DNA of 64,000 bases from Blasia pusilla (taxonomy: Eukaryota), in contig CM114271.1 of the NCBI GenBank assembly GCA_050084515.1, forward strand, positions 1,426,001 through 1,490,000, written 5' to 3'. The notes under the pieces are model-generated. The model was not told the origin of the DNA, did not search any database, and was given only the letters and a program-made list of their open reading frames with translations. Each line of letters opens with the position of its first letter. Positions within the stretch are counted from its first letter, which is position 1. Below are positions 14,908 through 57,368 of this stretch, piece after piece. Made by a program: the position numbers and the translations under genes.

Positions 14908-17334
14908 GCTATAGTAGGCATCATCTCAAGGGTTGAATTCCAAAATCCGATCCGATATATCCAAGTCCTCTTGGAGAAGGGTCACCATCAACATGAGGAA
15001 TGTCCAACTGCACACAGTTTGACTAATTTGCATTGGTATTATAAAATAATTTGAAAACACCTTGAACATAGAAACACCCTATAAGTTAGGAACTTATCAA
15101 GATTGTTAGGATATCCTAATTGGAGAATATGTCCTCTCACATCCTCTGACCCCGCCATAACCTTGGTAGTAGGGTATCTACCACACTTTGTGAACTACAA
15201 TACATACAAATAACGCTATCTCATGTAGAGAAGCAAAAAGTTACACCAGAGATGACTATAGGCCGTGTCCGGTCCCTTTTTTCTTGTACTATCTAGTGGC
15301 AAGTAGCTAGTTAAATACTTTTAAATGTCACTAACTCATAAATTCTTAGAATGTTAGCATATAAGGAATACTTGGAAAAATGATGGCAATGGAGGGGAAG
15401 GGGAGAAAACGAGGGGTCAAGAAGGAAGAGGAGGACTACGAGTAGGAATGTTCAAAGTCTTTGTTTCATTTTCATGTTCATATTGAATTTTCCTTTGTTC
15501 CAACCATTGGATTGTGTGGAAACATGGAAGATGCTTTTCAATTAAATTCCTTGCAAACTTCAACGGTTCATATGTGCCATTATGGCTCCCATACTTAAAC
15601 AAAAAGGGAAATGATTTTTAGGGTTTATGACTTTAATCTCCATGTGTGGGCGGTCATTTGAAGTCTTTATGTTCCTAGGCTTGGATTGCTTCTTTGAGAA
15701 ACTTTCTTGGTTTTTTTGGCTTGGATTGATTTTTTGGTTGGAAAAAATTGGATGATTTTTTAATCCCTAGCTTATGTGACACGTTGAATTTGATGTGGCA
15801 AGGTATGTGGCTTTGGGACATTGGGATTTGTAGGTTTTTTTAGTTCAAAATTCCCGCTTTTGAAATGTTAAGTACTCTGCTTTTTTTCTTCCCGACACAT
15901 CCAAGCCGTAGATCAAACGGAGCTCTACGTAAGTGCCAATCACTCAGAGAAGGAGAAGAAACATTCTAGCAGAATCATCGATGAGGAAGTAAAGCCAAGC
16001 AAGATTTGCAACAAACCGCGATCGGGTGGGTGTGGCTCGTATTCTTGCTCATCGGTTACACTCATTTCTCTATTTTGTTTTGATATGGTCGATCGAGGAG
16101 ACATTTCTCCGTCGCATGTGCATCTCAACCGTGAAAGAGAGAATGCGGTAAGTGCGTTAAGTTGAAAGAGAGAACATCAACAACAATAGGGAATGGAAGG
16201 GCAAGGATTTCAATTGATGGGGAAGAATCAGACAGTGCTTCTCACTATTTTTATGGATCCCGACTTGGGATGCGTATTTAGGTAGAACGAGTACAGGTTA
16301 GGAGTGATCGAATCATAATCAGCCAGCTTGGGATTTCTCTTCTTGTGATCCAGGGTTAGTGCCCTTTCTAGAAGCCGAGGAGATTTTGTAAAATGGGCAA
16401 TGTGCTAAACAAAAATGATGCCAATCGAATGCTTCAAATCTCTGTTCAGAGGCTCCTTCTTTTGAGTCTCCGCTCCTTTCCTCCATCAAAATTTCTTGAT
16501 TCCAACAACCTTCTCTGTCTTCGAGGATCTCTAAGGCCAAATTTTATGATTGATTTTGCTCTGTCCAAAATTTGCTCGATCAATTTGATAACATCCATGC
16601 TTTTCCGTCAATCAAATTTTCTCTGAGTTGATCCATGTGCCCCCCCTCATAGCCGCCGAGTACCCAAATATTTGATGCCTTCTAATGCTTTCTTGATCCC
16701 GACCAGGGATGAGGAATTATTGCCCGCAGATTATCCTTCACCTAGACTAGCTCTCTCAATCCTGCGTAGAAAATAGAAAATTACAAAAGAAACACCATCC
16801 TGACATTGTGGGCAAACAAGTTTGTACATGTTCAAACAAAAGTCATGCTATTGATTTCGACTGCCATAGAGATATGTAAACGATTCTCTTATGTATGGTT
16901 GGTGTAGAGAGACAACACTCATCAAGTAGTGCCTGTCGTAGCCTTGTGACCATAGACCCAGCGTCTAGGTTGGACAGTGCTAGAGACTAGGATGGGTGTA
17001 GAGAGAGGAAAACGTTAGGAAGGTATCATGAGGAGGGAGGCACTCTTGTATAGTTTGAGTGCAGACCATACAAAGTGCCAACTGGAAGCTGCTTACACCA
17101 CTATCTATATTACCTGATTCGAATCCCCAATACACATTACTTACCAGTGTGGCAACTTTGGATTTGTGAAGAGAGAGAAAGAATGAATGATTGAAGTGAT
17201 TTATTGTCTATGGGGACCCAAACTGAGTCATGGGACTTGGATGCGCAAATTCTGCAACCATGGAGGAGGAAGAACACAAACAAAGAGGTTCCACAAGATC
17301 CTTGATCCAGGTGTTGTTCTCTCTTCGCACACTT

Positions 17335-18467
17335 GTGTAAGAATTTAGGATTTTTTCTTAATGCAATACTTCCTTTGTTGTCAACCTGTAAGGATGTAGG
17401 AGTCATCTGTTCATATCCAAGATCATTCAATAAGCTCCTCAACCATATCACCTCTTGAGCAGCAAGAGAAAGCGCCATGTACTCTGCCTCAGTTGTAGAG
17501 ACTGCAATAGTTCTTTGTTTCTTACTACACCAATTGATCACCCCTCCACTTAACAAGAAGACATATCCACTTGTTGATCTTCTTTCATCAGTAACATCTC
17601 CCCAACTTGCATCTAAGAACCCTTCCAAGATTGGTCCATTTTCTTGATGCCTGTATTCCAAGTATGTTCTTGTTGTGCCACGCAAATATCTGAATATTCT
17701 CTTCAAACATTTCCAATATTCTATTATAGGTTTTCTGGTGTACTTGGCTAAGACACCAACTGGGTATGCTAAATCTGCTCTGACACCAACCAATGGTCTT
17801 TCTACCAGGTGGCAAATCTACAAACTCCCATGTCTCATTTTTCTCTAATGAGACCTTTTTCCCCACTGCTGCTCCCACTGTTTCGAATCATTCCTACTCA
17901 TAGCCTCACTCAAAGAGTTGGGCTCTACAACTCCTTCTTCAATAGCATGAGCTTCATTTATCCCCAATCTTTCTACAGGTTTGGAATTTTTTCCAGATCT
18001 CCTTTGCTATGAGATCTCCTTGATCACTCCCTCTGTGGACTCATGTGCCTCTATAACTTGCTTGGCTGCACTTCTCCTTTGTACACCTTCATAGGTTGAC
18101 TATTTTCAACATGATCTTCCTCTCTTACACCTTGGGTGCAAGTATCTAATCCTCCACTACATTCTGCAAGTGTATCCTTTGATACTTCCTCCTTATCAGC
18201 ATCTTGATGTGAGTTTGACACTACAGGGATGATTACAAGAGTGACAACAGAAGTGATTACTGGCACCACTTTGGTGACCATTGACTCTTTGTGCTCAGAG
18301 TCTTTCAAAAAACTCTTCTCATCAAAAGTCACATCATTGCTTGGAATTGCCTTGCAGGTTCTAGGATTATACAACATGTATCCTTTCAGACCTTCTTCAT
18401 ACCCAACAAATAATGGTGAACAATTCTGGTGTGTTACTAAACTGGGTTTGTGCATATAGGCTAGTGA
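17335..18467 (-). mobile_element. Ty1/Copia pol fragment (integrase C-terminus, deleted RT, RNase H)
   Basis: SLAYMHKP, FVGYEEGLKGYMLYNP, SNDVTFDE, SLEKNETWEFVDLPPGRKTIG and RADLAYPVGVL..DASWG..RRSTSGYVF..STTEAEYMA..VDNKGSIAL..NP. The RT core is deleted at ~17790. Confidence 0.9.
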
Positions 18468-18657
18468 ATGTGTTGAAAAGTTTTGGTGTTACCAAAACTT
18501 GTCAGCATAAATCTGATTGCACATGCTGGCATTCTATTTGTGCAGGGTGTATTGAAGGAGACCATAGGGAAGTGATTGCCCTATTGGAGGCCATTGGATT
18601 TGACAACTAGTGGATTGCTGGTCCTTTTTGCGCATCATAGAGAGTCATTGTGGGTGA

Positions 18658-19383
18658 TTGTTCTCTGCCGTGGGTAAGAATTGCGTACACACATACACAA
18701 TGGCAAATGTTCCCCTATTAGATCAGTACTCATATGTTGAGCATCACCGGATGGATCCCCCATGCTGCTTTTCTTGTGATGAGGGAGGTGATGTTATATT
18801 TTGTGATGGTGTTTGTGGTCATCATTTTCATTGGATTGGAGGTGGCATGCCCACCAACCCAGATAGTGGCAAGGGTAAGACGTGCATCCCTGTTGTGCTG
18901 CCTGGAAATCACAATTGGAGTGGACCTTGGGTATGTGATCTATGTGTTGATGATAGAGCCATTTGTTTCTCTTGTGGGCTGGTTGGTCGTGTTGTTGGGC
19001 ATACTGAGTTTGAGACACGACTCATCAAGTGTGCTCACCCGGATTGTTATTCCTTTTATCACCCGGGATGTGTGAAGACCCGCTTGCTTATCAGAGGACT
19101 CTCGCAGGCTCACACAATGCAAAGCCCTCTTGTTGCTCCTGATGCACTCATCTACTCACGTCACTATTGTGATGCGTGCAAGATATATCAGGCGGGTATA
19201 TATGACTTAGTGCAGTGTCGTAGATGCCCCCGTGCTTGGTGTTATGATCAAACTCCAGGAGGCAAGAGACACTTGCATAAAGGCTGTGATGTTAATGGCA
19301 TGTGGAATTTTGGTGAGTGGCGACTTGTGTATTGCCGTCGTCATATAATTCCAGAGGGCCAGTCTGTACCTACTCGGGATTAA
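18658..19383 (+). CDS. Tandem atypical PHD zinc-finger ORF resembling the EDM2/NSD PHD cluster; probably cargo of the adjacent DNA transposon
   Basis: Uninterrupted 241-codon frame: CFSCDEGGDVIFCDGVCGHHFH..WVCDLC..CFSCG..CAHPDCYSFYHPGC..HYCDAC..QCRRCPRAW..YCRRH. Confidence 0.75.
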   Translation: MFSAVGKNCVHTYTMANVPLLDQYSYVEHHRMDPPCCFSCDEGGDVIFCDGVCGHHFHWIGGGMPTNPDSGKGKTCIPVVLPGNHNWSGPWVCDLCVDDRAICFSCGLVGRVVGHTEFETRLIKCAHPDCYSFYHPGCVKTRLLIRGLSQAHTMQSPLVAPDALIYSRHYCDACKIYQAGIYDLVQCRRCPRAWCYDQTPGGKRHLHKGCDVNGMWNFGEWRLVYCRRHIIPEGQSVPTRD

Positions 19384-19671: not shown

Positions 19672-22600
19672 ATGTTGACCTGTACTAGAGCTAGTATCAG
19701 ATTGGTTGAAAAGAGGGGTGAAGGAGAGAATGATGAGTCTATTTGTGTCTTAGGTTACTTAGATGGGCAGACTCTAGCAGATCTACGTATGAAATGTTCT
19801 GCAATTGTGGAATTTGATTTTGATTTCCTGGACTTCAGGCTCCCTCGTAGAACGCATCAGAATGCAGAGAAGGTAATTCTGCTGATGGAATTGGATGGTA
19901 TAGTAGGTGTCATTCAACAATTACCTATAGGCCCTTATGGGAAGACAACGCATCTCAATCTTCTGCAACCACCATGTCTATTGTAGACGAGACTGTAGCA
20001 CGTTCAGCTCCTATGTCTCGAAACCATACTGAAATTGAGGCACATCCGATGGGTTCAATTGATATCTCAAACCAAGGTTCTGTTTGGGCCTGGTTTGAGT
20101 CAATGTTGATGGCAGATCCAACTGCAAAATGCTGGAATGATGAGTTCATCAGATTAGGGAAGCGGGTTGAGAAGAATGGATACAAAGACCACAATTGGAG
20201 GGTGAGGACATGGGATGATGGAACAGATGTGAGAGGACACCTAGAGTGTTTGGAGTGTAGAGTGAACTATGGGAATGCAGAGAATTCCCAAAATGTGAAA
20301 GGTATTGCAAATTGCTTTAGCAACTTTAGGACAAAGCATCTAGTTAACCCGAAACACAAGTATAGTTTTTGTAAGAGAAGAAAATTTCCTACATCATTGA
20401 TGGAGCCTAGTGATGTTGTTCACAAACCTCATTTTGATCATGGTGAGGCCATCTCTAGAAGACTAGAGATTGTCTCCCAATTGAATGAGGATGTTGGGGG
20501 TGATAGGGAGGTGTTCTTTGTGACACCATCTCCCACAAATCCTCAGTATGCCAATATGTCATACCTATTTAAGGTCAGGTGTAGGGTCTGTGGAAAGTTG
20601 CATATAGACATGTGCCCAAAGAAACTGAATTTGGATCATAATTTGAGACAACGCATGGTTAACCGGGATCACTTGGATGCCTCTGAGGTCAAGGAGGCTT
20701 CTGTGGAGATTGCATTGAGGTCTGGGAAGAGAGGAAGACCAAGGAAAGCAGATACTAGGGATCACCACCCATCACAAGGATCAATCCTGAGGTTCTTTAC
20801 AGGAGATAAGTTCAACGTTGGGAGCTCTTCAGGGAAAGGTGGGTCAGATCCAGAATAGATCCAGGACTAAGTTTGCTTTCGCTGGGGATTGTGGGATGAA
20901 ATGGTAAAGTGGAGAGGAGATTGGATGGATGTCAAGGCTATTCTTGATGATCAAGAGGGAGGGGCCTTGTGGGATTGTGAGTTAACTTGTTGTGTACAGG
21001 TTTACAATCCTACTCTAGAGTCTATAGTGACCATTCATGGTTGTTACCATTCATTGAAAGGTTGTCTTACAATGGTGGCGGGTTTATGAACCTAACGTGT
21101 AGTAAATGTGAGTCAGTAAAGCGATTGGATGATTTCTGTGGTCGGGTGCATAGGGAAGTAAAAGCTTTAGTGCCAAGAGGATCCAGAGATACCAGTGGGG
21201 GGATACGGTTGGATTTTCTTACCAAGACAGAGCACAAAAAGCACGTTGCAAATTTAACTTCCAAATTCAAAAAGCAACGATGGCTTCTATCACAGTATGC
21301 TGCCAAAGTAGCTGCCTTGAGTACTAGGTGGAGGAAGCTAGAGGAATTTTTAGGAGTAGCTACAGATAGGAAGGATCTGAGACTGTTCCTTAGGAATATA
21401 GTGAATGGGCATAGGACTGGAGCATTTGGTGGCAAAGAAGGGTTATGGGATTTCATGACAGATGTTGCTAGAAATCTAACCAAGGCTGCCAAGGGTTTTA
21501 GGTACTGTAAGAGAACCAAAGCCATAGCCCAAGCAATGCTATAATTTGGTGGTAGGCAAGTGGCCCATTGCTTTCAGAAGAACTTAGGTGGTCCAAGTCT
21601 AAAAATATTGAAGCGAGATAGAGCCAAGTTACCACCCTTCAGAGTTGGATTACGCAAAGAGATATTTGTGGAGGTTGGCAGAATTTTGTCTGCATCAAAG
21701 CAAACTCTTGGAATTGAAGGAGATGTCCTTGTAATATTTGCAGAGGATGAAACAAGGATTAAGGAGAGGCCCAGGTGAGTGTTTGAGATTCAATACAAAA
21801 AATTATAAGTGAGATTCAATACAAAAAATTATAAGCGAGATTCAATACAAAAAATTATAAGCGAGATTCAATACAAAAAATTATAAGTGAGATTCAATAC
21901 AACAAATTATAAGCCTTTGAGCAATTTTTTCCTCGTGAATACAACCTAACATTAAAGAGTCATGGCTGACAAATGGGAGGCCAAGTATGATACCGTGATT
22001 GGGTTTTGTGGGCCCAAAGAGGCACACCAATGTTCATATGGAATGGAAGTACTAGTCGGGGAGGGTGATGAGGGCTACCACAAGATTGTAAGTACTTTTT
22101 AGGGTTATTGTAAAGGCATATATGCAAGAGTTGTTATTGTAAATCCTCTTCATGAATCTATGTCTAAATTGGCCATCTGTGTTACTGCCACATGTAACAA
22201 GTTCATTGTAGAGTGGGTGAGACAACAGTGGGTGCAGTTGAAAGAAATGTGGGATGAGTATTGTCGGCTTGATGTCGGGCCGTTATTAGGACATGCCAAT
22301 GACGGGATGCTCGTTGTAGAAAACTAAAGATGGAGGATTTTAGGGGTGTTAACTCTACTGCACGTAGGTATAGTGTGGGGTGGGAAGGATGGCAATATTC
22401 TGTCTCTATTCTTCCTAATGGTGATCTCTATGGCTTCGGAGACCAAGATGCACCTCACAATGGGAAGAAAGAAATTAATCCATTAGAAAGATGCTCAACT
22501 ACTTGTGTCCTTGTAAATCAGCATGCATCTTTGTCATATGTGACAAATGTCTATAACCACTACAAAATTCACGAGCATGGCTTGAAGTGGGATGATGTGA

Positions 22601-24306
22601 ATAGGACTGATAGGAAAAATTGGGCTAGGCCTCAATGAATTGCTTCAAAGAGAGTGCAAGCTTGTTTGCAGGATATGTTTGAGAGAATGGATGTTCGCCA
22701 TGACAGAAGCCTAGGGACCCAACTATACTTGGAGGTTTATGGTAATTACATTGATATTTTCTTCTCACATAAGCATGACTTGAGGATTCGTGTAGTTTTG
22801 GCATCTAAAGTGTCGTGGTTCTTTCGACTCTGGAGACTTTGGCTGAGACATGGTGATCATTCTATGACAGGGAGTGTAGGACATGTGATAGAGAAGAACA
22901 TGATATCAGTGCAAGCTTTCCATGATATCAACATGTCTTTCCATTTTATTGTATTACTAATGTGTGCTTTCCGTGACAAGTATCCATACTTGCAAGTTCC
23001 ATTTCACCTCCTAGGATCTGATTGTTGTGAGATCTTCTTCAGCAAGGTAGGTGGAATGAGTGGCCATGAATGGAACTATGATTTTTGGTCTTTGTTGGAT
23101 AGTGCAGTGGGGTTGAATAGACTGGCTAGCTTGGAATTTGGACCAGAAGGATTGAAGATTGGCCGGTCTCATCCAAAGCAAGATCACGTGTGGGGAACTC
23201 TCCATCCGTTAGGTATAGGAGAAGATGCTCCTAATCTGTTTGACTATTCATTAATTCAGACTAATGAGATGGTAGTTCATGCCCTTAAAGAGGCTTTGGA
23301 TGAAGCAAAATCAATATTGAGCAGGTTGAGTATCTCTCCTAGGTCCTTTTTGCCTACAGGTCAGAGGCGATGGTGGTTGCATCCACAAGATGTGGAGGCA
23401 GAGACGTGGCCTGATTCTGCTATTATAAATGAGGCAGTTGCATGTGATGACTTTGAGGATTTCGTTGAACATAGACCAAAAGTAGGCCCTTGCCCACCCG
23501 AGGAGTCTAGAGTTGATGAAACAGAAATTGATAACCCAATGTAGAGGGATTTCAATAGTCTTGATGCTTGGGAAAGTGATGCACCAACCTTTGTTGAGTT
23601 TAGAGTGATTGGTGAGGACTTGGCTGAGGATGCAGATAACAATCCATCCATAGAGACATAAATATTGGGACATGAGGTAAGGCATGTATTCAGTTAAATT
23701 CTGCATGAGTGCACAGATGGAGTTCCTTGTCAAGTTGTGCCTACTGTGACATTTGAAGGCAGAATATACTCCAAGGCCACTTTGGTGAGTGATTGGGCCT
23801 GCAATCCTTTTATTTCTAAAGATAGGCTAACACGGATGTCACAGAAAACATATTACACTACAGGTAAGGTAAAAGAACCAAGTAATCTAGATTGCCCAAC
23901 TTGTTATGTTGACATTGGAAGTGATTTAGCTATTTTTTTTGAGTTTACTACACAAGTTGGACCTACTACTAGATCAAGTAAGTCAAAGAAGAGAAAACAA
24001 AAAGATTTGGATGAGAATAGAATAGACCCTACAAAAGAGTTTTGGTTAGGTCGTCTTTTGGACCGACCTGTCCCAAAAGATGGATAGATATGCAGTGTTT
24101 GTCAGATATTATGCAATTGGTATCGGCGCACAGGTAAGAGCAACACCTTGTTCACATATGATGCATGTGATGGCCAATATATTGACATTGAAATGGTAAT
24201 TTCAAATGTGAAACCAAGTCTTACATCCAGGATATATGAATTGGATAACAGTGATTTACGAGCGATCAATGATTACATCCGCAGCGTGTCGTCTTCTGCC
24301 AAGTGA
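19672..24306 (+). pseudogene. P-element/THAP9-like DDE transposase with N-terminal C2H2-like fingers and AT-hook; disrupted
   Basis: CLEC..KHLVNPKH, CRVC.., GKRGRPRK. Candidate catalytic motifs FAEDET (~21737-21754), HANDG (~22292), DQDAPHNGKK (DxxH, 22441-22470), DRKN and LGSDCCEIFFS (~23011-23043). GT intron from 21775. Several stops and frameshifts. Confidence 0.65.
21785..21913. repeat. 26-bp minisatellite, 5 copies, in the transposase intron
   Basis: GAGATTCAATACAAAAAATTATAAG(T/C) at 21785, 21811, 21837, 21863 and 21889. Confidence 0.95.
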
Positions 24307-25134
24307 TGTGCATGTTATAGTGTGAAGTCATTTTCTGAGTTTATGATAGGCTAGTTTTGGGAGGGGATAGATTAGGGGGATGAAGGCGTGGCCATATGAG
24401 CATCCTGCCCATACAGAGGTTCAATTCCTCTCCGTCATAGGTGTCAAAGTAATGGGGAAAGTGGAAGTTGCACTAAATATTGATTCAATGGAAACATGCA
24501 GATAATTCCACCACATATCATATATTTTGATAGCCTGAAAGCTTTTGATAGCCTATTATCAAGTGCAACAATACAAGACCGCCGCGCGAAGGGGTACTTA
24601 TCTTTACCCCTAAACAAATCAAGGACAAAATTTACTTAACAAAATATAGGGATCATAATTTTAAAAAAATTGCGATTTTAAAGTAAGTAAGGGGGAGGAA
24701 AAAAAAAATTCACTTATAAGTTAGGGGTTTCCGACCCCAAAACGTCGTAGATGATGTAGGAGGTATACATAGAGTGTCCCCCCCCGAGCCTCGTGGCTCT
24801 GTGTAGGATCCGATCCCGCTCCCTAGCACTCACTGTGTTGGCTATGACGCCACGCCAGTGCACAAGAACTCCACAACCTCCACGTCGTCATGGATATCAC
24901 GACCACCTATCGCCTCCTCATTGACCTCCGGATCCAAAGATTAATCATCCAACCCCACCACTGGAGTCATCACCTGCGACTGACCTACCATAGTCAACCA
25001 ACAAAGATAGGCAGATGCATGCCAACCGGACACCATCTCCTCATCACTCTCTCCATGCCATCGAGCTCTTGTGTCGTCTCTCTAACTCGAACATTGGTTA
25101 CAACTCAACCTCCGCCACCTACTTCAGCCGACCT

Positions 25135-28100
25135 GGCCTATGAACCACCTCAAACTCATACTCATGTAGTAATAGAGCCCGCTTGGCAAGCTTTTCCGTA
25201 AGCTTTCGGACTCCATCAACCACCTTGACAGCTGATGATCAGTGATAAGGGTGAAAGGGTTGTCGATTAAATACACGTGAAATGTGCCATGGCCCACACT
25301 ATAGCCAAGCACTCTCCCTCGTAAGAACTGTACTTTGCCTCTGCAATGTTGTTTGATCGGCTTGCGTAAGCCACAACGAACTCCCTCTCCTTGTCATCCC
25401 TCTGAGTACGCACTACTCCTAGACCCAACATGCTCCAATCCGTATGTAATTGGAATGGGCCACCCCTAACCGATCTCTATCAAATGGGTGAGGATGTCAA
25501 CTTGTCCTTGAGCTCCTGAAATGCTCGCTCATTATCATCTCCCCACAACCAAACCTGATCAAGTCTCGTCAACAAGGTCAAAGACTTTGTGATCGCACTA
25601 AAACCCTTGACATACCATCGATAGAAGTTTTCCAGTCCAAGAAATGCTTGAACTCGACTCAGATTTGTAAGGTGTGGAATCTCCGCAATAGCCTCCACCT
25701 TTGTCTGTTGAACGCCTAACCCACTCGGGTATATGGTGTGTCCCAAGTACTCAATCTGCCTGAAAGAATTTGCACTTGCCTCCGCTCCATATCAGAATAC
25801 CTGTAGGGTCGACGAAAGATAGGCGTATCACTAGCCAACTCAATCAGTATCCCGTGACCCTTCAGCGTACCCAAGTCTCTCATACTGAAGGAAAAAAACC
25901 GACATGCCCTCTCAGAAATATATGAACTTGCCATCGTTCTACTCATGTCAACATGAGACCTATCACACGCTCCCAAGTCTCCATCGTGACCTCACTCGGA
26001 GAGGACGCAACCTCCGGCTTTGGTTGCTATGTAGCAACCCTAGCCACCTCCGCAACATCCACTCCACTCTGACCTCCTACACGAGGCTCCCCATCCAAAA
26101 ATGAATATGTGCTGCTCTCGACGCCTTCGCACTCTCCGCTCGAAGGACGTCCCAAGAAGTCCATGGGTGCCTATCTCTCCTCGTCATGCCCCTAGCCAAT
26201 GCCTCTACATACCTTATAGGCAATGGTCCAACTCGTGGACGTGACAACATGGATAACACTCACATCCATCTGTGCTCAGCCATACCTAGGCTGACTATCC
26301 ATGTGAGACAGTTGAGGTCCATCGCCTGCCCCAAAACCTGTCTGTGTGATGCCTCAGTCATACCTGGCACTGCCGTAGTACCCGTAAAGAACCCCATGGC
26401 GCGCTCATGCTCATTTGCTGTAGGCTTCTCCAATGCTCAGGTCACCTCATCCCAAATCATGCCTAGCCCTCCTTGACAAAAGGCATGGGATGCTAGGAAG
26501 CTCACCAACGTAGGTAAGGCTGCCCTCAACTCCCCCATCCTATTGGCCATCGCCAAGGGTGGTCTATCATCCCGCGTCACCACCAGAGATCGACGCTTTG
26601 AGCCCAAAATAGCATCCACAATGAGATGTGGTGCTCTCTGGACTCCATTGTATGCTCGACTCAGTACCTCTGATCGTATCAGGTTCGTCCACAACAGTCG
26701 TGGACGATGGGCGCGTGATCCAACTCTCGCTGCATCTAACAACATAGCAAGTCCCAACCAGGACCTCACTTGATGCACACTCGTCATCACACGTGCTCGA
26801 GTGTCTCCCAAAAATGGCACGTTCTCCAAAATGTACGCCGAAGAACATGTCGACTCTCCTGCAAGTGTCGTACTACTCGTAGCATCTCCCAAAACATGCT
26901 TGACCTCGGATTCTGCAATCCAAAGCCTCGGTTAGCTGATGAATGACCCTGACATGGCCATGCAGCAATCATCAAATGAATGGTGCCAACTCCATCTAGA
27001 TCTTGCGCCCCCACCAAAGAGATGTCGGCGGGTAGTGTATGCTAATATCTTTGTATTGCAGATACTGGAAATAACTCAGTATACCTCTGGACCAATCTTG
27101 CTACGTAACGTAATGATATTTGCCATGCAGTCTCATCTCTTTCCACATAAAGGTACTAATGCACCCGTATGCCCGCCTGCAATACCACTGCCAATCCTGT
27201 GCTAATCCCTCCAAAGAGATCTAATACCCTAACACCCTCCTCTGGACACTACCACACAACGGGTGTGGTATCCAGTGGGGTCAATGTCTCCACTCTAGGG
27301 GCCCAATCGCCACCTGACTCTCCTTGCTCCGGGATAAAAGCATGACTCCACGCCTGCCTAACGAGGTTGTCGGCACTCCTCTGTAGCTCTCGAGTTGAAT
27401 CCCACAATGGTGAAGAGGTCTCGCCAACATGGGAAGAGACACACGCCATGGCCTCTCTCTCCGTAGGACTATCCGCTACTAGAACATCCTCCGGATGTGC
27501 GTTCCCCTCCAACAACTCTCCCTGTGAAGGTTGCCAACGTGAAGGTTGCTAACACTACCTGTGAAGGTTGCCAACGTGGTCATAAACTCGTCTCGTGATC
27601 GACCTCCTCATCCTACTAATTGCATGGGTAATTGACTCATCCGGCCGTCACCTGACCGCCACCTTGGCAGATAAGCAACGGTCTCCTCCCATAAGTCAAG
27701 GATGAATCCTAGGGGATATAACACTATACTCCCTACCAACACATCATATGACCCAGCTGGTATCGTAATCGCACGTGTGCGTACCATAGCACTATCCATC
27801 GCATGCTCTAGCTGGACTCTAACAACTATCTCCTGTCGAGTCATATACTTTTTGGATGACATGCCCCCAATCGAGAGGTCTGTATCTGGAAGGGACAAGG
27901 CTCAATGTCGGGCTTCTCTAACCCCAACGCCAAACACGCCGGCTTCCCTAACATCAAGGGTTGTGCTCCCGAATCAAGAAGGACGCGCTGCAGGTGGTAT
28001 ACTGTCCCCGTCAGACTAACCAAGCGAAATACTCCAACTCGGTTATCTAGTAAAACTACTCCAGGTGTCACCACTGCTCGCTCTATGGCCGGTCGAGCTG

Positions 28101-30060
28101 GCATATCTACCAACTTCGCCGCCACCGCATGCCATGACTCTGTGGGGGACGTCTCAGGCACCCGCTCTGAGGGCAAGTTGACCACCTCCTCAACTACCTC
28201 TAAACAAGAAGAAATCACCTCTCCACGCTCACACAATGTGGGGGCCAGCCGGAACACCTCAGCTGGTCCAACTCCCAACGTGGCCAACTCTATGGCGGAA
28301 AATAGTGGAGTTTGGCTCACTTTGGTGGCCACCTCCAACACTATGGTTGACACTGACTCCACTCAAGCCGACATAGGAGTTGTCACTCCAACTCCTCATG
28401 ACGTCAACGAACCTGCCTGACGTGTAGGCATCGCTGCTCGTTGAGGCACCAGCGATGGCGGTGCCTCCAACAATGTGAATGATTGTGGAACCCTGGCCTG
28501 CCGCCCATGTGTCCCCTTCGCTTGGTCAATCTCAACTCCACCTCCGGATGGCTTAGTGTGTCTCGCAACACCCCGAGTCACCATTGCATCCACCTCAACC
28601 TGAGCTGCACTACACATAAAACCCATACTAGCGAGATCCTCACCCGGGTCAGGGTGAGAGGTAGAAGCTGGAGCCACACTAGTTGCTTGCGGCTCCGTGC
28701 CTTCCCTGAGCTGCATCATTGTCATGGCAGCAATCCTCTACTCCAACTGATCGATGCGTCAGAGAAGTGCCAGCTCTAGTGCTCCTGCTCCATCTCCTCT
28801 GGTTGGTGGTGGTCCTCTACCACCACGTCTAGGAATAACTCCCCAACCTCCTCCAGGACGACCACCCCTAGGCCCTCGGCCTACCTCTGGACGTGCCTCT
28901 TGACGAAGGTCAAAACATCTATCCCTAGTATGACCATATTTGTGGCAATAGTCACACTGGTACTGTGGTGGGGCCATCCTTTGTGGCTCCTGAGCAATTG
29001 GAGGCGCTCGTGGTCCTCTCCCATGCTGTGTGCAATCTCTCTGCCTATGGGCCCCTCCACACATCCAACAAGACAACATCGGTCCGTGATGGGCAACATA
29101 TGTAGGTACGGGTGGTTGCCTCATAGGCTCACAGTACCTACCTTGCTCTCTGGGCACAATGGCTTGCTCCCGTGGTACTGGAACTCCTTGTGGCACATGT
29201 GAGATCATCGTCGCTCGTGGACCCGTCGACTCTCTAGAAAGTCCAGCGGTCACTACTTGCTCCTCACTCATGTTGAGCTCAATACGCTCAGCACCGCATT
29301 TCGGACTCTCCTCCGTAGTTCTCGATCCAGAACCACGTACCAATACTGGACTGACTGCACCTCAATCACTCCATACATAGCAATGATCAGCCTCCTCATG
29401 CGCATGAATGCCTCTCTCAGACTCTCACCCGATCGTCATTGAAAATTCTGTAGACTCTTCATCTTGTCAGTACGTACACCCTGGTAGCTCTTCCCCAACT
29501 ATCGGAAGAACTCCACTGTGGGACTGAAGCTGGGTGGCCCTCTACCACCAGAGGTCTGTGCCACATGGCCAGTCTCACTGCCCTCCTCTCCATCTAGTCT
29601 CTAGGCTAATGATCTGGGTCTCTCTCCTTTCAAGATCCCATCATATACCTCGCGACCACTAGTGAACACATACTCTGGAGCCCAATACATCCTCCAGGCA
29701 TCAATCTCTATGGAATATAGTGATCGAAACTCCATGTATCATCCATCGGAGGACCCTCCAAGTGTTGGAACAACCCCTTCCACACCATGAAAGGTTTGAA
29801 CCGAGTCGGGGTCCGTATCTCCTAGAAGTCGCATCACGTGTCGTACTCCTGGATAAAATCATCTAAGTCAATGGTGCCCACTGCATCCGAGAAACAACGC
29901 ATGCCCCGATGGCCCATGTCGTCCACCTCCTGCCAAGTGATACTGCCTCCATCTGCGATCTCGTCACCAGACCCGGTGTCTTGTGATGACGATCCAACCA
30001 CGGGTGGATGTCGAGGTAGCTCCTCACTTGTTACCACTCTGTATCTCACTACACTCCATG
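25135..30060 (-). mobile_element. Degenerate Ty3/Gypsy copy A: gag, protease, C5 DNA methyltransferase, internally deleted RT, RNase H
   Basis: Gag IDLDDFIQEYDT; knuckles CWMCGGAHRQRDC and CDYCHKYGHTRDRC; protease VLLDSGAQPL; RT start PIFRRPYRYSDMER fused to GKCKFF..YLGH; AFLGLENFYR; RNase H TDW..VAYASR..FTLITDHQ. Confidence 0.9.
26290..27240 (-). pseudogene. Retrotransposon-encoded DNA (cytosine-5)-methyltransferase domain
   Basis: Motifs in canonical order: I VRVLDLFGGISTG, II YVERD, IV AAWPCQGHS (PCQ at 26949-26957), VI YILENVP (ENV at 26818-26826), VIII AHRPRLLWTN, X RQVLGQAMDLNCLTW. Stops and a frameshift are present. Confidence 0.88.
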
Positions 30061-31425
30061 TCACACCACTACTACTGCTAGCACTACCCCGTTCTTCTGA
30101 ACCGTGGAAGAACGTCGTGATAACAACTCTGTCTCACCCGCTCAAGCACTCACACTCACCGAGAGTCTCCCACACTCCTCACTACCTCACCTATGCTAAC
30201 ATCAATCCCATGATGACACGCCCAATCTCACGCACTCTCAACACTCAGGCTCACCATGAGCCTCCCACAAACTCACCTAACCTACCGACACTCTCGGATC
30301 ACATATGCGACCCCTACTTGGCAACCGTCGTATATCCACCAACATGCTACACATGAAAAGAGTTTACACTCGTCACCATCATTGCACCCACCTAGCATCA
30401 ACACTCTCAATCACATAAGATAAGTGTGAGAAAAGGGACTCAAACGGGTAACCTGATCACGCCCACCAACCTACTGTACCGTCAACATCCACTCCTCCAC
30501 ATGATATGAAAACCTCCGCAGCACAACACTCTCCTTGACCACCACGTCAAACCTCTCGTCAGCATCGGTGTGTATGCCTCCATCATAATCCCCGCAAACC
30601 CCAGCCATGCCCGAAATAGATCACATCCCGAATATCTCTCTGCCAGCCCCAGATGCATATCGTGCGCATACACATCGCTACACAACATACATCGCTATCA
30701 TCGAGCACACACGATCCCATGCTAACTCATGGCATCCCTACATAGAGGCAAGAAGTACCAAAATATCTCAAATCTCATTCTCTCTTTGTAAAGTAAGATC
30801 CAATCTCTCTCTACACCATCTCACACCGTAGCTCTCAAAGGTGTGCACTCTCTCTCATGGCAAACCAAACCCTCTCCAAGAGAGAAGTTTGGGTTACACT
30901 CACAAGGCAAGGGACCATAGCTCCGCCGCCTTATGCCAAGAGGTTCAACAAAGAGAGAATGAACTCTCTAGCTCTCTCTTGGAGATATACCCCCTTCCCT
31001 CTCCCAAGCACTCTCAACGGTAACCTATGCTTGCAGGTCATCTCCTTGGCTCTTGATCTGATGTAGTGGATCAAGGGCCACTTCCCAAAGTGGAAATTCA
31101 GCTATCCCTAATATGGGAACTTACCGGAAATAGTAAGTTTCTCTATATGGCTCCAAATGAGCCGAAACGAAGGGGAAACCTACTCTCTCAGGTTTCTCGA
31201 GGCCTCAATAGGTCATCCTTGACCTCCTAGGCCTGTCCTCCACTACTCGTGCAGACGCTTTGCTAGATCCCGCCGATCTATCCTAACAGTCGTGAAAACT
31301 GTCGTGCGCATACACATCGCTACACAACATACATCGTTGTCATCGAACACACACACAAACACACACGATCCCATGCTAACTCATGGCATCCATACGTAGA
31401 GGCAAGAAGTACCAAAATATCTCCA
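30050..31425 (-). repeat. LTR between Gypsy copy B (upstream) and copy A (downstream)
   Basis: Starts with TG at 31425 after PPT AGGGGGGCGAT (31426-31436). TATA-like GGGGTATATC near 30990. The inner part (30050-30500) matches the region 5' of gag in copy C. Inner boundary uncertain. Confidence 0.65.
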
Positions 31426-34400
31426 ATCGCCCCCCTAGTTGGTGGTTAGGTCCCTCTAACTCTAGATAGCCATCTATCCCTACCTACCACGACATACATC
31501 TCTAGGATGCTAAGAGCAGAAAGGCCGGGTGCTCATGTGGCCCCATCGTTGATCGCCTTCATGTCTTCCATGTCATAAAAAAATCGGAATCGAAACCTAC
31601 CTAGTATCTCCTCTATGTACATGTGGGACACATCCATCGTCCCTGAGGAACCCTAGTGAGAGGTGGCGTCAGACATGCCATATGCCAACCTCTCGAACAT
31701 CCATCACAGACTAGCATCGTGGCCGTACCACGAGCAGAACCACACAGCATACAACGCAAGCCTGCAAAAACTACTGTTGAGCTTGGATCTACTGTTCCAT
31801 CAATGTTAGGAAGGTGACATGGCACACAATTACGCACATGGTCCTTCCACACTATACCATCGCGTCCCTCCAGCAAGAGAACACCACATGGCAAAATGTC
31901 ACACACTTTCAAGAGAGTGCGCCCTGCAGTCACATCCAACGTCATCGGTGCCTTCAGCTACAAGTAGACATAATCTCCCTGATGAAACCTCTGGATAGTT
32001 GGTTGATAACCACCACCCCAAATAGTCGCATACCTCAACGTATCCCGATGTTGCGCAATCGCCAAGTTCTCGAACGACATGGGCATCACTCTCCAAAACA
32101 ACTCAGCCCTCTGAGAACATCCTTGCATCCATACATCTGGGTCATCAAGGTCCAGCACCTCAACAGCATCTCGACGAATGGCCGTAGGTAAATCTGGCTC
32201 TCGGCCATAAAGTAGCAAGTACAGTGAAAAAGACGCTAAGGATTCCTGCCTGCTAGATCTTTATTCCATCGCCAACCACGGCAACTAGAGGTCCCAATCT
32301 CCTAGGTGACCTCTCTATAAGCCATACTTGCATAAACTCCTCTTCACCGTCTACACAACTCTCTCCGCTAATCCATCCGCCTCGGGATGATCTCGCGAAG
32401 TCGTGCGGTGTTCGATCATCAACTAATCACACAAGGTCTGGAACTCATCGCGTAACTCGGTACCCTGGTCTATCAACACCTCAGCCGATGCGCCATAATG
32501 ACTCAAAACTCTCTCAAGTAAGGCATAAGCTACTCCCTCACTCGCTTTGTCAAGCAATGCAACCAACTCGATCCACTTTGAGAAGTGCTCGACCATCACC
32601 AACACATAACGACTTTCACACTCTGTCAAAGGCAAAGGTCCTGCAAAATCCAAACTCCATCTTTACCCTAAGCCCATGATTGGTAATGGATGCAACTATG
32701 GAGTCGGAGCATTGAACGATGCTTGGACCTGATCGCACACCATGCACCTGGCAACAAATTTTTGAACGTCAGTCTGCATGCCTCGCCACCATACTAAATC
32801 TGGAGCAAGTTGTACGTCCGCATCACCCCAAATTGACCCAACTCCTCGTGGGCATGTTGCACTAGTCATGCTCTCTTCAAAGGATTTGGCACTACGCATA
32901 CTCTACCATCCTCCCAAATCCTCAAAACATGTGTCCCCTCCCAACGGAACTGTCTGGCCCGCTGTAGCATCCGATCCCGCTCTCTAGCACCCATGGTGCT
33001 TGCAATGCTGCCAGTACGAAGGTACTCCAAGACTACTCCATCATCGTGAATATCTCGGCCACGTGTCGTCTCCTCACTGGCCTCGGGATCCAAGGACTCT
33101 CCACTAGACCTCGCCATCGAAGTCTCCACACTCTGGCTCTCCATAGCCAACATGCCTAAATAGGCTGACGCGTGCCAAGCTTCCCTGTAAATCTTGTCGG
33201 ACTCCATCAACCACTTCAATGGTTGATGATCAGTGATGATGGTAAAGGGGCTGCCGAATAAGTAACACTTGAAATGCACGACAACCCACACTACAGCCAA
33301 ACACTCACCCTCATATGAGTTGAACTTTGCCTCTGCAACATTGTTCGAGCGACTAGCGTAAGCCACCATGAACTCTCTACCCTCATCATCATGTTGGTTG
33401 AGCACCGCTCTAAGCCCCAACATGCTCCAATCTGTGTGCAAGTGGAAAGGACGCCCCTTGATCTGTCTCCTCAAGATGGACACGGACGTCAACCTATTTA
33501 TGCTCGCTCCTACTCATCCCCCCAGTGCCACTTATGCTCAACCTTGGTCAGTAAGGTTACCGACTTCGCAATCGAACTAAATCACTTGACGTACCACCGA
33601 TAGAAGTTTGCCAATCCCATGAATGCGAGAATATGGCTCACATGTGTAGGGCATGGAATGTGTGAGATAGCCTCTACCTTTGTCTGCTAAACACCAAGGC
33701 CCCCTGGGTATATCATATGACCCAAGTTCCCAATCTGGTCGTAGAAGAACTTGCACTTGCCTGGATGTAGCGTCAGCCCATGTAATTGCAATCGTCAAAA
33801 CACCTCCTCTAGATGTCGCTCATGCTTCTCAACCATGGCGCTAAAGACTATATATATAACACCTAGCAAAATCTAGACCAGCCAAGATCCCATCCATGAT
33901 CCTCTGAAACTCAGCCGGGGCGTTCTTAAACCCAAATGGTAAGAACCGCCACTGGTACAAACAATCCTTCCCGTGAGGATCGATGCCCCAAAATGCCGTC
34001 TTCTGCATGTCCTCCAATTAATCTAATAGGCAACTGATGGTATCCGGCTCGCAAATCCAATGAACTGAAGACCTTTTCCTGACCAATCGCATCAAAGATC
34101 TCCTCAGGGATGGGCATGGCATACTTATTGGACTTCGTCTCCCGATTGATAGGTCGGTAATCCCCACACATCCTTCTATCCGTCCAGTTGCCATGCACAT
34201 CCTCCTTGGCGGGCATGACAATGGCAGATGCATACTCCCCATATGACATCTCCACTAGTCCTGCTCTGACCAAGTCCTGTCTCCTACTCTGAATCAGAGT
34301 CCTCTCCATATCAGTGTACCTGTAGGATCATCGGAAGATCGACGTATCACTCGACAACTCAATGCGGATCCCCGGTCCCTTCAGCATACCCAAATCCTCC

Positions 34401-34465
34401 ATGCTAAACGCAAAGCAACTCCTATAACTCTTGAGGAACTGATGTATCCGGCGCCGCTCTCCTCT
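31426..34465 (-). mobile_element. Ty3/Gypsy copy B pol: RT, RNase H, integrase, C-terminal PHD finger
   Basis: RRMCGDYRPIN, FSSLDLRAGYHQ, LHTDWS..VAYASRS..TDHQPLKWL, integrase DFAGP..IDQGTE, PHD finger. Many stops. Confidence 0.92.
31616..31753 (-). other. PHD finger at the integrase C-terminus
   Basis: CMLCGSARGTATMLVCDGCSRGWHMACLTPPLTRVPQGRWMCPTC gives a full C4-H-C3 pattern. Confidence 0.92.
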
Positions 34466-36879
34466 GGGGGCTGGTATTCTGGCAGGAGAGAGTAAGAGAG
34501 GAGAGGAAGAGAGGAAGAGAGGAGAGTCTCTCTTCAAAAAAAAGGGCCAAATCCGCCTCCTCTCTTCAAAACTTTATGACATATTTGAAATTTTTGTTTG
34601 CTTTCAAATCCATGAAAACTTTAGAAGAGAGTAGGTAGTGGTCCACATTTGGTCCTAAAAAAACCTCCTTTTTCCTTGGGGCGAAAAAAAAATAGACATC
34701 ATAAGACCACTACAAACATTTTTCATCTCCTCATCTCGGTCAACAAAAAGCAATGCCCTTGGTATTTTTGTTGGAGGACCACCGGATGCCAACCCTAAGC
34801 ATCTACTCCAAGGCATCTTGCTGACATTTCTACCTCATCTACTTCGAACCTGCCTAACTAAAGCCTCTTGAGCAACATTGATGGCATAGGCTCGACCTGT
34901 CTCTTGGACATGCTTGAAGGTGAGATCTACCTCTATATTCTTCCCATGCTTGCTTCTTCTCAATCTGGTTCGAGCCCCGCCCTCAGTTCACACCTCCACT
35001 TAGCTCCACCTAGACAAATCTTCCAGAAATCACTCCTTGGATCCTCTCAACTCCATAGATCTCTCCCTTGGATTCTCAAGCTTTATGGCCTTCAAATGAG
35101 GTCCTCTAGGCTTCCATGAGGAATATTCTAGCCCACAAGAGTCCAAGCATTTGAGCTCAGCCTCCATTGACCTCTTCTTAGCCCCTTATTCTTCATTTCT
35201 TGGCCCTAACAATCAGATCCACCCCCTTGGTTCAAACCCTCCTCTACAACAGCAATCAAGCACTCTATCTCCTTCATTGGATACCCTGGAGACTCCCTAG
35301 TGCCTACACCATCTCCCTTGTCTCCTCTAGGCTTGAGGTCAATGGAGTGACTTGGCTGCATTATCACCTTGTACAATCTTCTTGACTTGTTCTTGGACAG
35401 CGTGCTGCTGGGCCTTTCTCTTGCACCACCTCCACAAGTCCAAAAAACATATTCCAGAAAACTTTTACAAAAACCATTATGGGTTCAAAAAATCTCGTCC
35501 TTTATTACCTCCGAAGGAACCTCGAAAATGTACATTGAACCTAGTCTATGATTTCTTCAGCCTCGTCATCTACAAATTTACTCCTAACTCTCCTCGGTGG
35601 CATGATACCAAAGGAATGTCCTGGGATTCAAGTGGCTCCTCGGCGGTTGTAGACGGGGATCGAAAATGTTGGCGATTTGAGAGCCTTGGCCCCCCCTAGG
35701 TACACCATAACGGTCCCATGTAACTGTCTCGAGTCCCACCGCCTTCCTCGGTATACCTTGTACGCTCGCAATGTGACACCCATCCAAGTATCAATATCGC
35801 TCCGTCCCGGTAATACCACTATGGCAACCGCAGGTAGAAGGAATCCAACACGTCGAGAGAAGAAAAAAGCCCTCGCTGCCTTTACGAGTTGAGGGGAAGG
35901 TGCCAAGGAAGAAGCCCGCCAGGATCGCCTCATCCGAAAGGGTCCGATCAGGCAACCTGTCGGAATCGACATGGTTTCTGGAGGTGGTAAAAGGGTCCGA
36001 TGGTCAAAAGCGAAAAGTTGAGGAGAAATCCGACGGTTGCGTGGTCATAAAGTGAAAATTGCAAGCGGGAGAAATCCGACGGGTTGCAAAGTAGAAGACC
36101 GTGGAGTACATAGATGATCACATTCGAAAAGACAAAATGATCACCAAACATTTACAAGCACCACCATCGATTGAAAAAATCTTTACGCTTTATATCATCC
36201 GAAAAAAGCTCGGAATCAGACATTTGATCTATTCTATGAAATCTTTTGCCAAATTATCAAAAACTCCCTACTCCAAAGCAGCTGCAGTCAAGTTGGGTCG
36301 TTGAGTTCTTTGAACTCACTCGTCATCGCCCGAGAGCTCTTGCAAAATCACTTTCGGCCTTGCCCCCGATTTTGGGAATCGTTGGAAGTGACGATGGACT
36401 CACTACCAAGGGTGGCTCGAACCGAGCTCTCGGCCCGGTGGAGAGTTGTACGCCCAACGAGCCTTTCAGATTCTGCCTTTGCCTCCTTGCAAAGGTCAAG
36501 CGATTCTGCTTTCCTCGAGCGGAGAATGTTCTGCCACTCTGCCAGCGCCTCGATACTCGCCCTGAAAGGCCCACTAAGTCGAACACCAAGTCACCCGGCC
36601 TTGAGCAGAGCTCGATGAGCGTTGCATCGGTCGGGCGACTTTTCCCTTCCTCCCGAAGCGGGTATGTCTTGCATGTAAATTCCGAGGGGAATTGTACAAA
36701 CTATCTAAGCTGTACCCATCGGGCATGGATCCACAGGATCCTGGATCTTGAACACTGGAAATTGTGCTCGGGCCAAATGAAGCAAGACACGTAGGAGTGG
36801 TCCATCGTAAATCAAGACAAAACAATGTCGAAACTAAAGAAGTCGCTTGAGAAGATTTTCAATAATCGACTTTGGATCA

Positions 36880-41509: not shown

Positions 41510-42185
41510 AAATCGCAACCCGTCGGAGTCCGACAAGTTGCGCGGCTCCGCCATCCTGGGTACGTCGCCACGTGCGCGAGCAACCCGTCGGAGCCCGACG
41601 GGTTGAGCGCCTCCGTCGTCTTCGGAAAAGAACGCGAGGTACCCGCGCAACCCGTCGGAGACCGACATGTTGCGTGCCTCCGCCAACGGCGTCGCCGCCG
41701 TCGCTTGAGCACCCGTCGGAGACCGACGGGTTGAGCGCCTCCGTCGTCTTCGGAAAACAACGCGAGGTACCCGCGCAAGCCGTCGGAGACCGACATGTTG
41801 CGCGCCTCCGCCGTGTTTGGGACGGGAACGGGACGTATTTTGGGCAATCCGTCGGAGACTGTTGGGTTGCATGCTTCCCTTATCAAGGGTTAGGAACGAT
41901 GGCTTCCCGTGCAAGTCGTCGGAGTCTGGCTGGCTGCACCACAAGGCGACGCCCTTGCGCAACCCGTTGGACGGCGACGGGTTGCACGCCTCGCCGGGAA
42001 CAGACGGTTTGCACGCCTCCGGCATCTTCGAGCAAGAAGGAGCGGTATCCCAGCAAGTCGTCGGAGAGCGACGGGTTGCTCGCTTCGACAATGTTTAGCA
42101 GAAGCGTGCAACCCGTCCGATGCCGACGGGTTTGCAAGCCGTAAGCCGGGTAATTTCGAGTTACCAAGACTCCGACGGGTTCCAA
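41510..42185. repeat. Palindrome cluster 3 (about 12 copies) in the divergent promoter, including a ~129-bp tandem duplication
   Basis: Copies at ~41515, 41580, 41647, 41709, 41775, 41844, 41911, 41959, 41986, 42053, 42108 and 42168. Confidence 0.92.
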
Positions 42186-57339: not shown

Positions 57340-57357
57340 TCCCCGGCAGCGGCGCCA
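57340..57357 (-). promoter_or_regulatory. Primer-binding site (Athila-type TGGCGCC.., usually assigned to tRNA-Asp)
   Basis: TGGCGCCGCTGCCGGGGA lies 11 nt inside the 5' LTR. Confidence 0.8.
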
Positions 57358-57368
57358 AAAAGAAGCTA

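Follow-up and report, generated by a model that had tools for sequence, protein, structure and literature searches.

A DNMT3-type cytosine methyltransferase very probably native to a bryophyte family of Ty3/Gypsy-type retrotransposons, met as a decayed copy in Blasia pusilla

C5 cytosine DNA methyltransferases (DNMTs) borne by retrotransposons have been described from the dinoflagellate Symbiodinium, as SymbioDIRS-Dnmt3 and SymbioLINE-Dnmt, as well as from the charophyte alga Klebsormidium nitens, as KnitGypsy-Dnmt3 (de Mendoza et al. 2018, PMC5890265). Both precedents had been invoked in a preliminary description, made from the letters alone, of a 64,000-nucleotide stretch of Blasia pusilla DNA (contig CM114271.1, positions 1,426,001 to 1,490,000 of the forward strand; hereafter the window, in which positions are counted), and the available text of the 2018 paper bears them out. 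That description placed a C5 DNMT inside a Ty3/Gypsy polyprotein, between protease and reverse transcriptase (RT). The stretch concerned is read here, with high confidence, as a decayed copy of a Ty3/Gypsy-type retrotransposon from a bryophyte family whose own coding region holds a DNMT3-type methyltransferase; the family appears to extend a known, rare Gypsy-DNMT3 kind of element into land plants.

According to the text available of the 2018 paper, KnitGypsy-Dnmt3 was acquired "in the K. nitens lineage", is present there in few copies and has a Ka/Ks below 0.2. A repeat arrangement written A-coding-B-A-B is given for DIRS and for the K. nitens Gypsy-DNMT3 element, the SymbioDIRS domains methylate CG in yeast, and Marchantia, mosses and liverworts are not mentioned in that text. 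The EpiLTRs of Cymbomonas and Euglena, described in a preprint (bioRxiv 10.64898/2026.05.21.726589, available text), carry a DNMT that groups with DNMT4 and lies at the 3' end of pol, and they also bear an adenine methyltransferase and a chromodomain; streptophyte Gypsy-DNMT3 is treated there as a separate acquisition. In the portions available, both this preprint and Sarre et al. 2025 cite only the 2018 paper for streptophytes. The available text of another paper (PMC12344493) describes the 2018 work with the words "LTR Copia and DIRS families", whereas the 2018 paper itself says Gypsy; the domain order observed here is that of Gypsy, agreeing with the original wording. No report of DNMT-bearing retrotransposons in bryophytes was met in the literature searched, with subscription journals and supplements lying outside it and a mention there being possible.

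Compared with KnitGypsy-Dnmt3 by its published description and not by the K. nitens sequence (domain order, stop and PHD finger, treated below, fall outside the comparison), the family found here is alike in having a non-rearranged DNMT3-type domain inside a Gypsy-type coding region and in being under purifying selection (Ka/Ks below 0.2 there, 0.19 for deep pairs here). No K. nitens name occurs among the named relatives in the protein searches. The repeats of some relatives are a further likeness. In the complete relative L056, a metagenome locus, they run as A (3065-3401), coding region, B (11699-11813), A (11818-12154) and B (12154-12268), that is A-coding-B-A-B and not two simple long terminal repeats (LTRs). 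Only a B..B pair is seen in two other places: the 3' end of locus L037 bears two B-like copies at a distance of 498 bases, and two direct copies of 115-127 bases (31428-31302 and 30774-30660, about 640 bases apart) lie behind a second fragment in the window. This second fragment (31616-34462, minus strand) encodes RT, RNase H and integrase followed by a PHD finger, and its RT/RNase H part is about 72% identical in DNA to that of the first copy; the fragment is cut near the start of the RT frame, shows no DNMT and adjoins the 5' side of the DNMT copy head to tail. The A-coding-B-A-B arrangement is the sole feature beyond the domain that ties the bryophyte-type elements to the published algal one. 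The two differ in that the host of KnitGypsy-Dnmt3 is an alga with few copies, whereas here the hosts are liverworts and mosses and the window's species holds the family in great abundance. SymbioDIRS likewise joins a DNMT3-type domain to A-coding-B-A-B repeats, but the Symbiodinium elements have a tyrosine recombinase or an endonuclease and not a DDE integrase, and their RT lineage and host are unrelated. EpiLTRs resemble the present family as LTR elements with a cytosine DNMT and a chromatin-reader domain; they differ in that the DNMT is DNMT4-like, is appended 3' of pol, and is accompanied by the adenine methyltransferase and chromodomain.

All reading frames of interest in the window lie on the minus strand. 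The DNMT, previously put at 26290-27240, is placed here at about 27245-26263 as a broken domain, with Pfam, PDB phmmer, tblastn, motif positions and intact relatives in agreement. Motifs I (VLDLFGGISTG, 27227-27195), IV (AAWPCQGH, with Pro-Cys, 26966-26943), VI (YILENVP, with Glu-Asn-Val, 26835-26815), VIII (SRAHRPRLLW, with Arg-x-Arg, 26718-26689), IX (EHERAMGF, 26412-26389) and X (VLGQAMDLN, 26337-26311) follow one another in unpermuted order, not the order of DRM; motifs I, IV, VI, VIII and X had already been listed in this sequence, and IX is added. All ten key residues checked are kept: F, G and G of motif I, P and C of IV, E, N and V of VI, and both R of VIII. The profile PF00145, proposed earlier as a check, reaches 24.7 bits (E 2e-5, with the cut-off at 22) for the motif IV-VI part, frame piece 26787-27041, and 23.6 bits for the read-through N-terminal half of the domain, against 45-49 bits for relatives. 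The C-terminal half alone has no Pfam match and no PDB match; the DNMT open reading frame (ORF) of metagenome locus L027 aligns to the window domain, C-terminal half included, with 55-65% identity and E 1e-118. The signal for a DNMT in the window is far beyond chance.

As to the type of DNMT, the top PDB match of the window N-terminal half is DNMT3A (phmmer E 0.0018, over motif I), and the intact Calypogeia relative P0003 matches DNMT3A at 8e-11, followed by DNMT3B/3C and, more weakly, by tobacco DRM (4e-7), DRM2 (2e-4), M.HaeIII (4e-4), HhaI and DNMT2 (9e-3). The alignment of P0003 with DNMT3A spans motif I to motif VIII in order, without the DRM rearrangement, and the Atlas predicted model of P0003 residues 305-635 has a template-modelling score of 0.74-0.75 to animal DNMT3A/B clusters. 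These results support a C5 DNMT of DNMT3 type, whose nearest solved and modelled relatives are DNMT3 and not DNMT1, DNMT2 or bacterial enzymes, within a comparison to which cellular plant DNMT3 did not belong.

The domain is part of the element's own coding region, and this is borne by relatives in named bryophytes, in metagenomes and in the reads of the window's own species. The Marchantia polymorpha gene model Mp_4g09160 (P0004, 1278 aa) aligns colinearly by tblastn from 29908 to 26137 in six pieces (summed E 2.8e-158), which comprise gag with its zinc knuckle, protease (PR), linker and methyltransferase. The position of the DNMT between gag-protease upstream and RT downstream, as first described, thus agrees with tblastn, Pfam and relatives alike. 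A search for longer protein relatives with the read-through N-terminal half found 16, of which 13 are bryophyte: nine from Marchantia polymorpha, two from Calypogeia fissa and two from Sphagnum, the other three being without a species name. The Marchantia, Calypogeia and Sphagnum gene models carry gag-PR-DNMT colinear with the window; Mp_6g11220 continues into RT, and a Sphagnum fallax model into RT and integrase. The DNMT part of P0004, used as a query, returned 61 proteins, including 15 Marchantia models with 82-100% identity to Mp_4g09160 in the DNMT part; identity of the DNMT to Marchantia is 76% in Calypogeia and 52% in Sphagnum. Relatives are encoded in 114 metagenome stretches, of which 80 were retained as loci. 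By Pfam, L027 and L056 have the order CCHC, DNMT, RVT_1, RNase H and integrase, to which L056 adds a PHD finger after the integrase (the L027 contig ends inside the integrase), and the full gag(CCHC)-protease-RT-RNase H-integrase order is present in L027, L056 and the protein P0343. The family order is gag (CCHC), protease, DNMT, a conserved in-frame stop, RT, RNase H, integrase and PHD finger, and in the first reading frame the DNMT is the C-terminal domain.

Whole-genome reads of the window's species were placed on 24700-30100 at a likeness of at least 80%, and 56,596 of the 12,431,861 sampled reads (0.46%) fall on these 5.4 kb; the family is very abundant in this species, with the qualification, which tells against a firmer statement, that the figure comes without a single-copy control and is a fraction of reads only, not a copy number. 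Mean depth (bin averages) is about 1190 for the DNMT, 1090 for gag-PR and 1380 for RT/RNase H, the ratio of DNMT to gag-PR being about 1.09. Since a domain private to one copy would give a deep dip, the even depth indicates that the DNMT is not private to the window copy. As most of the reads (37,899 of those placed) are less than 90% alike, the family is diverse and the window copy old within it; this copy is 41-66% identical to every relative, the best being Calypogeia at 66%. The preliminary description had named two findings that would undo it, namely a separate nested insertion with its own target-site duplication and absence of the domain from other family members. Neither occurs: the same order is found in named gene models and in the 80 loci with even read depth over the domain, and gene models, metagenome loci and the species' reads all carry the DNMT.

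The boundary between DNMT and RT is marked by the conserved stop, seen when the Sphagnum stretch spanning the DNMT end and RT start was set against the metagenome loci: the gene model had spliced out 38 codons containing an in-frame stop. A stop stands at the same site in 42 of 43 metagenome contexts (TAG in 30, TAA in 12; the remaining one has GAG), and the codons after the site are CAA CCC in 41 of the 43 and CAA CCA in two. Full-span alignments have a stop in this column in 30 of 30 cases, the next commonest stop column reaching 7 of 30 and, for comparison, the worst stop column in the DNMT alignment 13 of 51. The window retains TAG CAA CCA at 26029-26021. Ten predicted proteins (six Marchantia, one Calypogeia, three without species name) end 44-69 residues past the domain on a similar tail, and proteins of other clades of type A, a term used here for a PR-DNMT or DNMT-RT order, together with a Closterium protein, end 54-136 residues past it. 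Judged at the level of sequence, the family is shown to consist of two frames in one register, gag-PR-DNMT followed by RT-RNase H-integrase-PHD. The stop context was absent upstream of the second window copy (34330-34800), that copy being cut near the RT frame start. An additional stop between protease and DNMT in L027 was considered as a second recoding site and rejected, as it is private to L027.

It is rather probable that the stop is leaky: RT-RNase H-integrase would be made by read-through, and Gag-PR-DNMT would then outnumber RT and integrase and enter the particle along with Gag. An in-frame UAG between an abundant upstream product and the polymerase is the arrangement of murine leukaemia virus, where the gag-pol stop is read through, and of tobacco mosaic virus with its leaky UAG, and the tobamovirus signal begins with UAG CAA. 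The family is like these viruses in its in-frame UAG upstream of the polymerase; it differs in having protease and DNMT upstream of the stop, a third codon that is mostly CCC and no supported pseudoknot. Several points weigh against read-through, for which the evidence is that of conservation. The plant-virus signal CAR YYA is matched only by the CCA variants, that is by the window and two of the 43 contexts, the other 41 having CCC. The RNA fold after the stop is weak (-11.6 kcal/mol, covariation term -1.1), and a conserved hairpin there as an RNA signal was rejected, the fold being weak and the hairpin sitting in a conserved peptide. Some relatives, P0027 and P0343 of one clade, lack the stop and have gag through integrase in a single frame.

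The alternative, held with less than even confidence, is that the stop is a true end and that RT-RNase H-integrase is produced from a spliced or subgenomic RNA, by re-initiation or in trans. The predominance of CCC over the consensus CCA and the want of a supported downstream RNA structure fit such an end, as does the splicing out of the stop by gene predictors in Sphagnum P0018 and Marchantia P0010. Against it, none of the 30 full-span alignments shows a change of register between the two frames, conservation of a coding-like kind continues straight across the stop, and UAG with a following CAA persists in lineages as distant as L027, moss-like loci and the window. The earlier wording of a DNMT "embedded" in a polyprotein accordingly stands as to its place between protease and RT, while a single polyprotein would exist only if the stop is read through. 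If the family is as described here, a stop that places the DNMT at the end of the Gag-protease product would give a concrete idea of when and where the enzyme acts.

The family has wider relations. An exhaustive search with P0003 gave 4631 representatives at E of at most 0.001 and 281 at no more than 1e-30. Among 320 proteins, 66 are of type A and 191 of type B, the latter having the order RT-DNMT-integrase (RT and/or integrase around the domain); Pfam on 24 long proteins confirmed both orders, with a PHD finger after the integrase in many. Named hosts of type B are the chlorophytes Scenedesmus sp. PABB004 ("pol", KAF8056149), Haematococcus lacustris and Monoraphidium neglectum, and those of type A are Marchantia, Calypogeia, two Sphagnum species and the zygnematophyte alga Closterium. 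Presence of the lineage in land plants, raised conditionally at the outset, is thereby established for two liverworts and two mosses, and near kin of the element are common in both groups. The type-B DNMT domains are related to the bryophyte ones at 38-42% identity, and both kinds of element have a Gypsy-type RT/RNase H and a PHD finger after the integrase; type B has its DNMT between RNase H and integrase with a mostly Glu-Cys motif IV, whereas the bryophyte family has it before RT with Pro-Cys. P0060, P0257, P0266 and about 190 others are chlorophyte or environmental Gypsy polyproteins of this kind, with the DNMT between RNase H and integrase and a terminal PHD finger, and two of these polyproteins, P0247 and P0320, are of eukaryote type and carry NCBI labels of bacterial metagenome bins (Minisyncoccia, Spirochaetia), which most likely reflects eukaryotic DNA put into the wrong bin. 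No description of type-B elements was met in the literature searched, in which chlorophytes were not targeted. Neither the placing of the DNMT as last domain of the Gag-protease frame, ahead of a conserved stop, nor the sister architecture abundant in chlorophytes was met in that literature.

A quick maximum-likelihood tree of 103 DNMT domains, unrooted and with type B represented by 36 random and six named or long sequences from 158 non-redundant ones, puts the window copy in a clade of eight with the named bryophyte rows (SH-aLRT 100), the order within this clade being unresolved. Type B and unplaced short rows form one clade of 64 rows (SH-aLRT 94), and type A forms several clades at the unrooted base. 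Both a single capture followed by a move inside pol and two captures are compatible with this tree.

Descent of the family from charophyte ancestors is set against arrival in bryophytes by horizontal transfer, which is considered unlikely. Transfer would fit the lack of any vascular-plant or hornwort name among the matches, the fair likeness of moss and liverwort DNMTs (Sphagnum and Calypogeia against Marchantia, as given above) and the unresolved relationships in the clade of eight. On the other side stand the occurrence of type A in Closterium, the A-coding-B-A-B repeats that L056 shares with the Klebsormidium element and the single clade formed by the bryophyte rows; absence elsewhere is moreover weak evidence, as those searches that return names require shared words of 5 letters and are limited in the lengths they cover.

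The selective history of the domain was followed in the metagenome relatives, where 51 of the 80 loci gave a single DNMT alignment covering at least 85% of the domain. Median pairwise NG86 dN/dS is 0.58 for the DNMT (1117 pairs), 0.36 for RT (167) and 0.64 for the protease (512). For the DNMT it runs from 0.85-0.90 at dS below 0.1, through 0.54-0.55 at dS 0.2-0.5, to 0.19 at dS above 1 (97 pairs), and in random disjoint pairings dN is smaller than dS in about 23 of 24 pairs. A dN/dS that falls with divergence indicates copies decaying neutrally once inserted, superimposed on constraint in the lineages that stayed active, so that the dN/dS check suggested with the preliminary description returns purifying selection on the domain. 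This conclusion is weakened in that the values, which were computed on metagenome relatives, come in the deepest bin (dS above 1) from near saturation for NG86. Only two of the 51 DNMT stretches are free of stops, nearly all copies observed being broken, which speaks against enzyme activity at the present day. A residue survey over 267 domains, with counts for 48 of type A and 185 of type B, found the catalytic Cys in 44 of the 48 and in all 185, and the Glu of ENV in 47 and 185, respectively. In type A both Arg of motif VIII are kept in 44-45 of 48 and the Phe of motif I in 46, while in type B the Pro of Pro-Cys is Glu in 119 of 185. These codon and residue patterns show that purifying selection has acted on the domain and that its catalytic residues have been retained.

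As to function, only suggestions may be made: retrotransposons here carry an enzyme that normally silences them, and the charophyte domain was inactive in its only test. It is tentatively proposed that the DNMT is active on DNA and could methylate the element's newly made cDNA or its fresh insertions. The opposing result comes from the available text of the 2018 paper, in which the KnitGypsy-Dnmt3 domain produced no methylation in yeast, an outcome called inconclusive since human DNMT3B also failed. This result would equally suit a conserved domain that does not methylate DNA, serving as a binding or scaffolding module or acting on RNA, as would the change from Pro to Glu in type B and the suggestion of RNA methylation made by the same authors, in the text available, for the LINE-borne DNMT. 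Such a role is nevertheless distinctly unlikely: the catalytic set kept in type A (Cys, Glu, Arg and Phe at the counts given above) is hard to explain without catalysis, and the nearest solved relatives are DNA enzymes.

That the DNMT is a separate piece in this one copy, whether a nested insertion or a host DNMT3 pseudogene between retrotransposon fragments, is extremely improbable. In its favour stand the extensive rearrangement of the copy, which has lost its RT core and its 3' end, and the mosaic of element pieces that makes up the window. Against it, named bryophyte gene models and the 80 metagenome loci show this order in frame, the species' own reads are as deep over the DNMT as over gag-PR, and no flanking repeat brackets the domain.

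Taken jointly, the parts would make a broader picture, which as a whole is regarded as improbable. Liverworts and mosses, Marchantia polymorpha included, would hold a large, vertically kept Gypsy lineage with Gag-protease-DNMT3 upstream of a leaky stop; the product would be packed into the particle and would mark the element's own cDNA before or at integration, and the element DNMT3 would be a real source of de novo methylation. With the chlorophyte type B this would form one ancient green-lineage clade in which the DNMT moved within pol. An element-borne source of de novo methylation in bryophyte cells could be real, given that the family accounts for about half a percent of the sampled reads in one species. 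If the family alone is as described here, the role would be testable in a tractable land plant, with at least 15 Marchantia polymorpha gene models carrying a DNMT part, and the family would be at high copy in another bryophyte. Gene models derived from such elements can also pass for host DNMT genes in counts of plant methyltransferases.

The window copy itself holds gag, protease, DNMT, part of RT and RNase H, without integrase, and homology ends at about 24791. Gag (28900..29908, tblastn with P0004 residues 9-214 onward at 46-67% identity) has its CCHC zinc knuckle CDYCHKYGHTRDRC at 28956-28915 and shows three frame changes by tblastn. The aspartic protease region (27557..28362, tblastn with P0004 residues 229-779) has the active-site motif LLDSGA at 27981-27964; a Pfam scan of it returned no protease family, and PF13975/PF13650 were found in the relative P0033 at the place aligned to it. 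The linker between protease and DNMT (27246..27556; P0001 translation residues 1-100) aligns to P0004 786-868 and to the consensus of an alignment; it is conserved in relatives and has no known family match. Past the DNMT domain, the tail of the first frame (26030..26262), which is recognised in a three-frame translation and aligns to P0004 up to residue 1246, contains a further frame change, and it is followed by the conserved stop with its next two codons (26021..26029). The RT frame begins with its N-terminal part (25782..26020; ETWERV... PIFRRPYRYSDMER), placed by motif positions and by tblastn with L027 ORF3 residues 1-85, and resumes after an internal deletion with the RT end and RNase H (24791..25781; L027 ORF3 residues 270-605, Pfam RT_RNaseH 61-64 bits).

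The copy is a dead, old, non-autonomous relic with its catalytic residues still in place. In-frame stops lie at 27251-27249, just before the domain, and at 27158-27156, 27044-27042, 26439-26437 and 26262-26260 (three TAG, two TGA), and a frameshift lies inside the DNMT near 26851, where 574 of 766 reads of the window's species carry a one-base indel relative to the window. At least one further frame change occurs between DNMT and RT, and at least seven between gag and RNase H. A deletion has removed 184 residues (86-269) from the RT core, the junction being visible at 25781 against the second window copy, with 890 reads diverging at 25785, and the element breaks off before the integrase. The window has T/A where reads have C/G at 287 places and the reverse at 126, an excess in the direction expected from decay of methylated cytosines. 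As a point against the reading of this stretch as a retrotransposon copy, no terminal repeats or target-site duplication of the DNMT-bearing copy were found in the window, its 3' end being missing. Just below the break-off lies a run of long open frames (19851-24306, plus strand; 335, 187, 111, 301 and 129 aa, GC content 0.42) without a Pfam family, possibly an unknown mobile element that cut the DNMT element.

Other elements share the window. A third relative (10924-13488, plus strand) consists of gag and protease only, at 34-44% identity to the Marchantia and L027 proteins; it ends about 70 residues before the expected DNMT start and is therefore uninformative on DNMT-less family members. 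A younger Gypsy element (47117-57847) has direct repeats at 47117-47581 and 57371-57847 that are 98-100% identical, and encodes RT, RNase H and integrase at 49767-53091 (minus strand) without a DNMT, its RT being 35% identical to that of L027. A Copia-type fragment (17137-19383, minus strand) is recognised by SH3_retrovirus and a weak RVT_3 match, with a PHD-finger frame on the plus strand at 18658-19383. Tandem-repeat arrays occupy 6215-9065 (unit of about 193-217 bases) and 41514-42090 (unit of about 128-142 bases).

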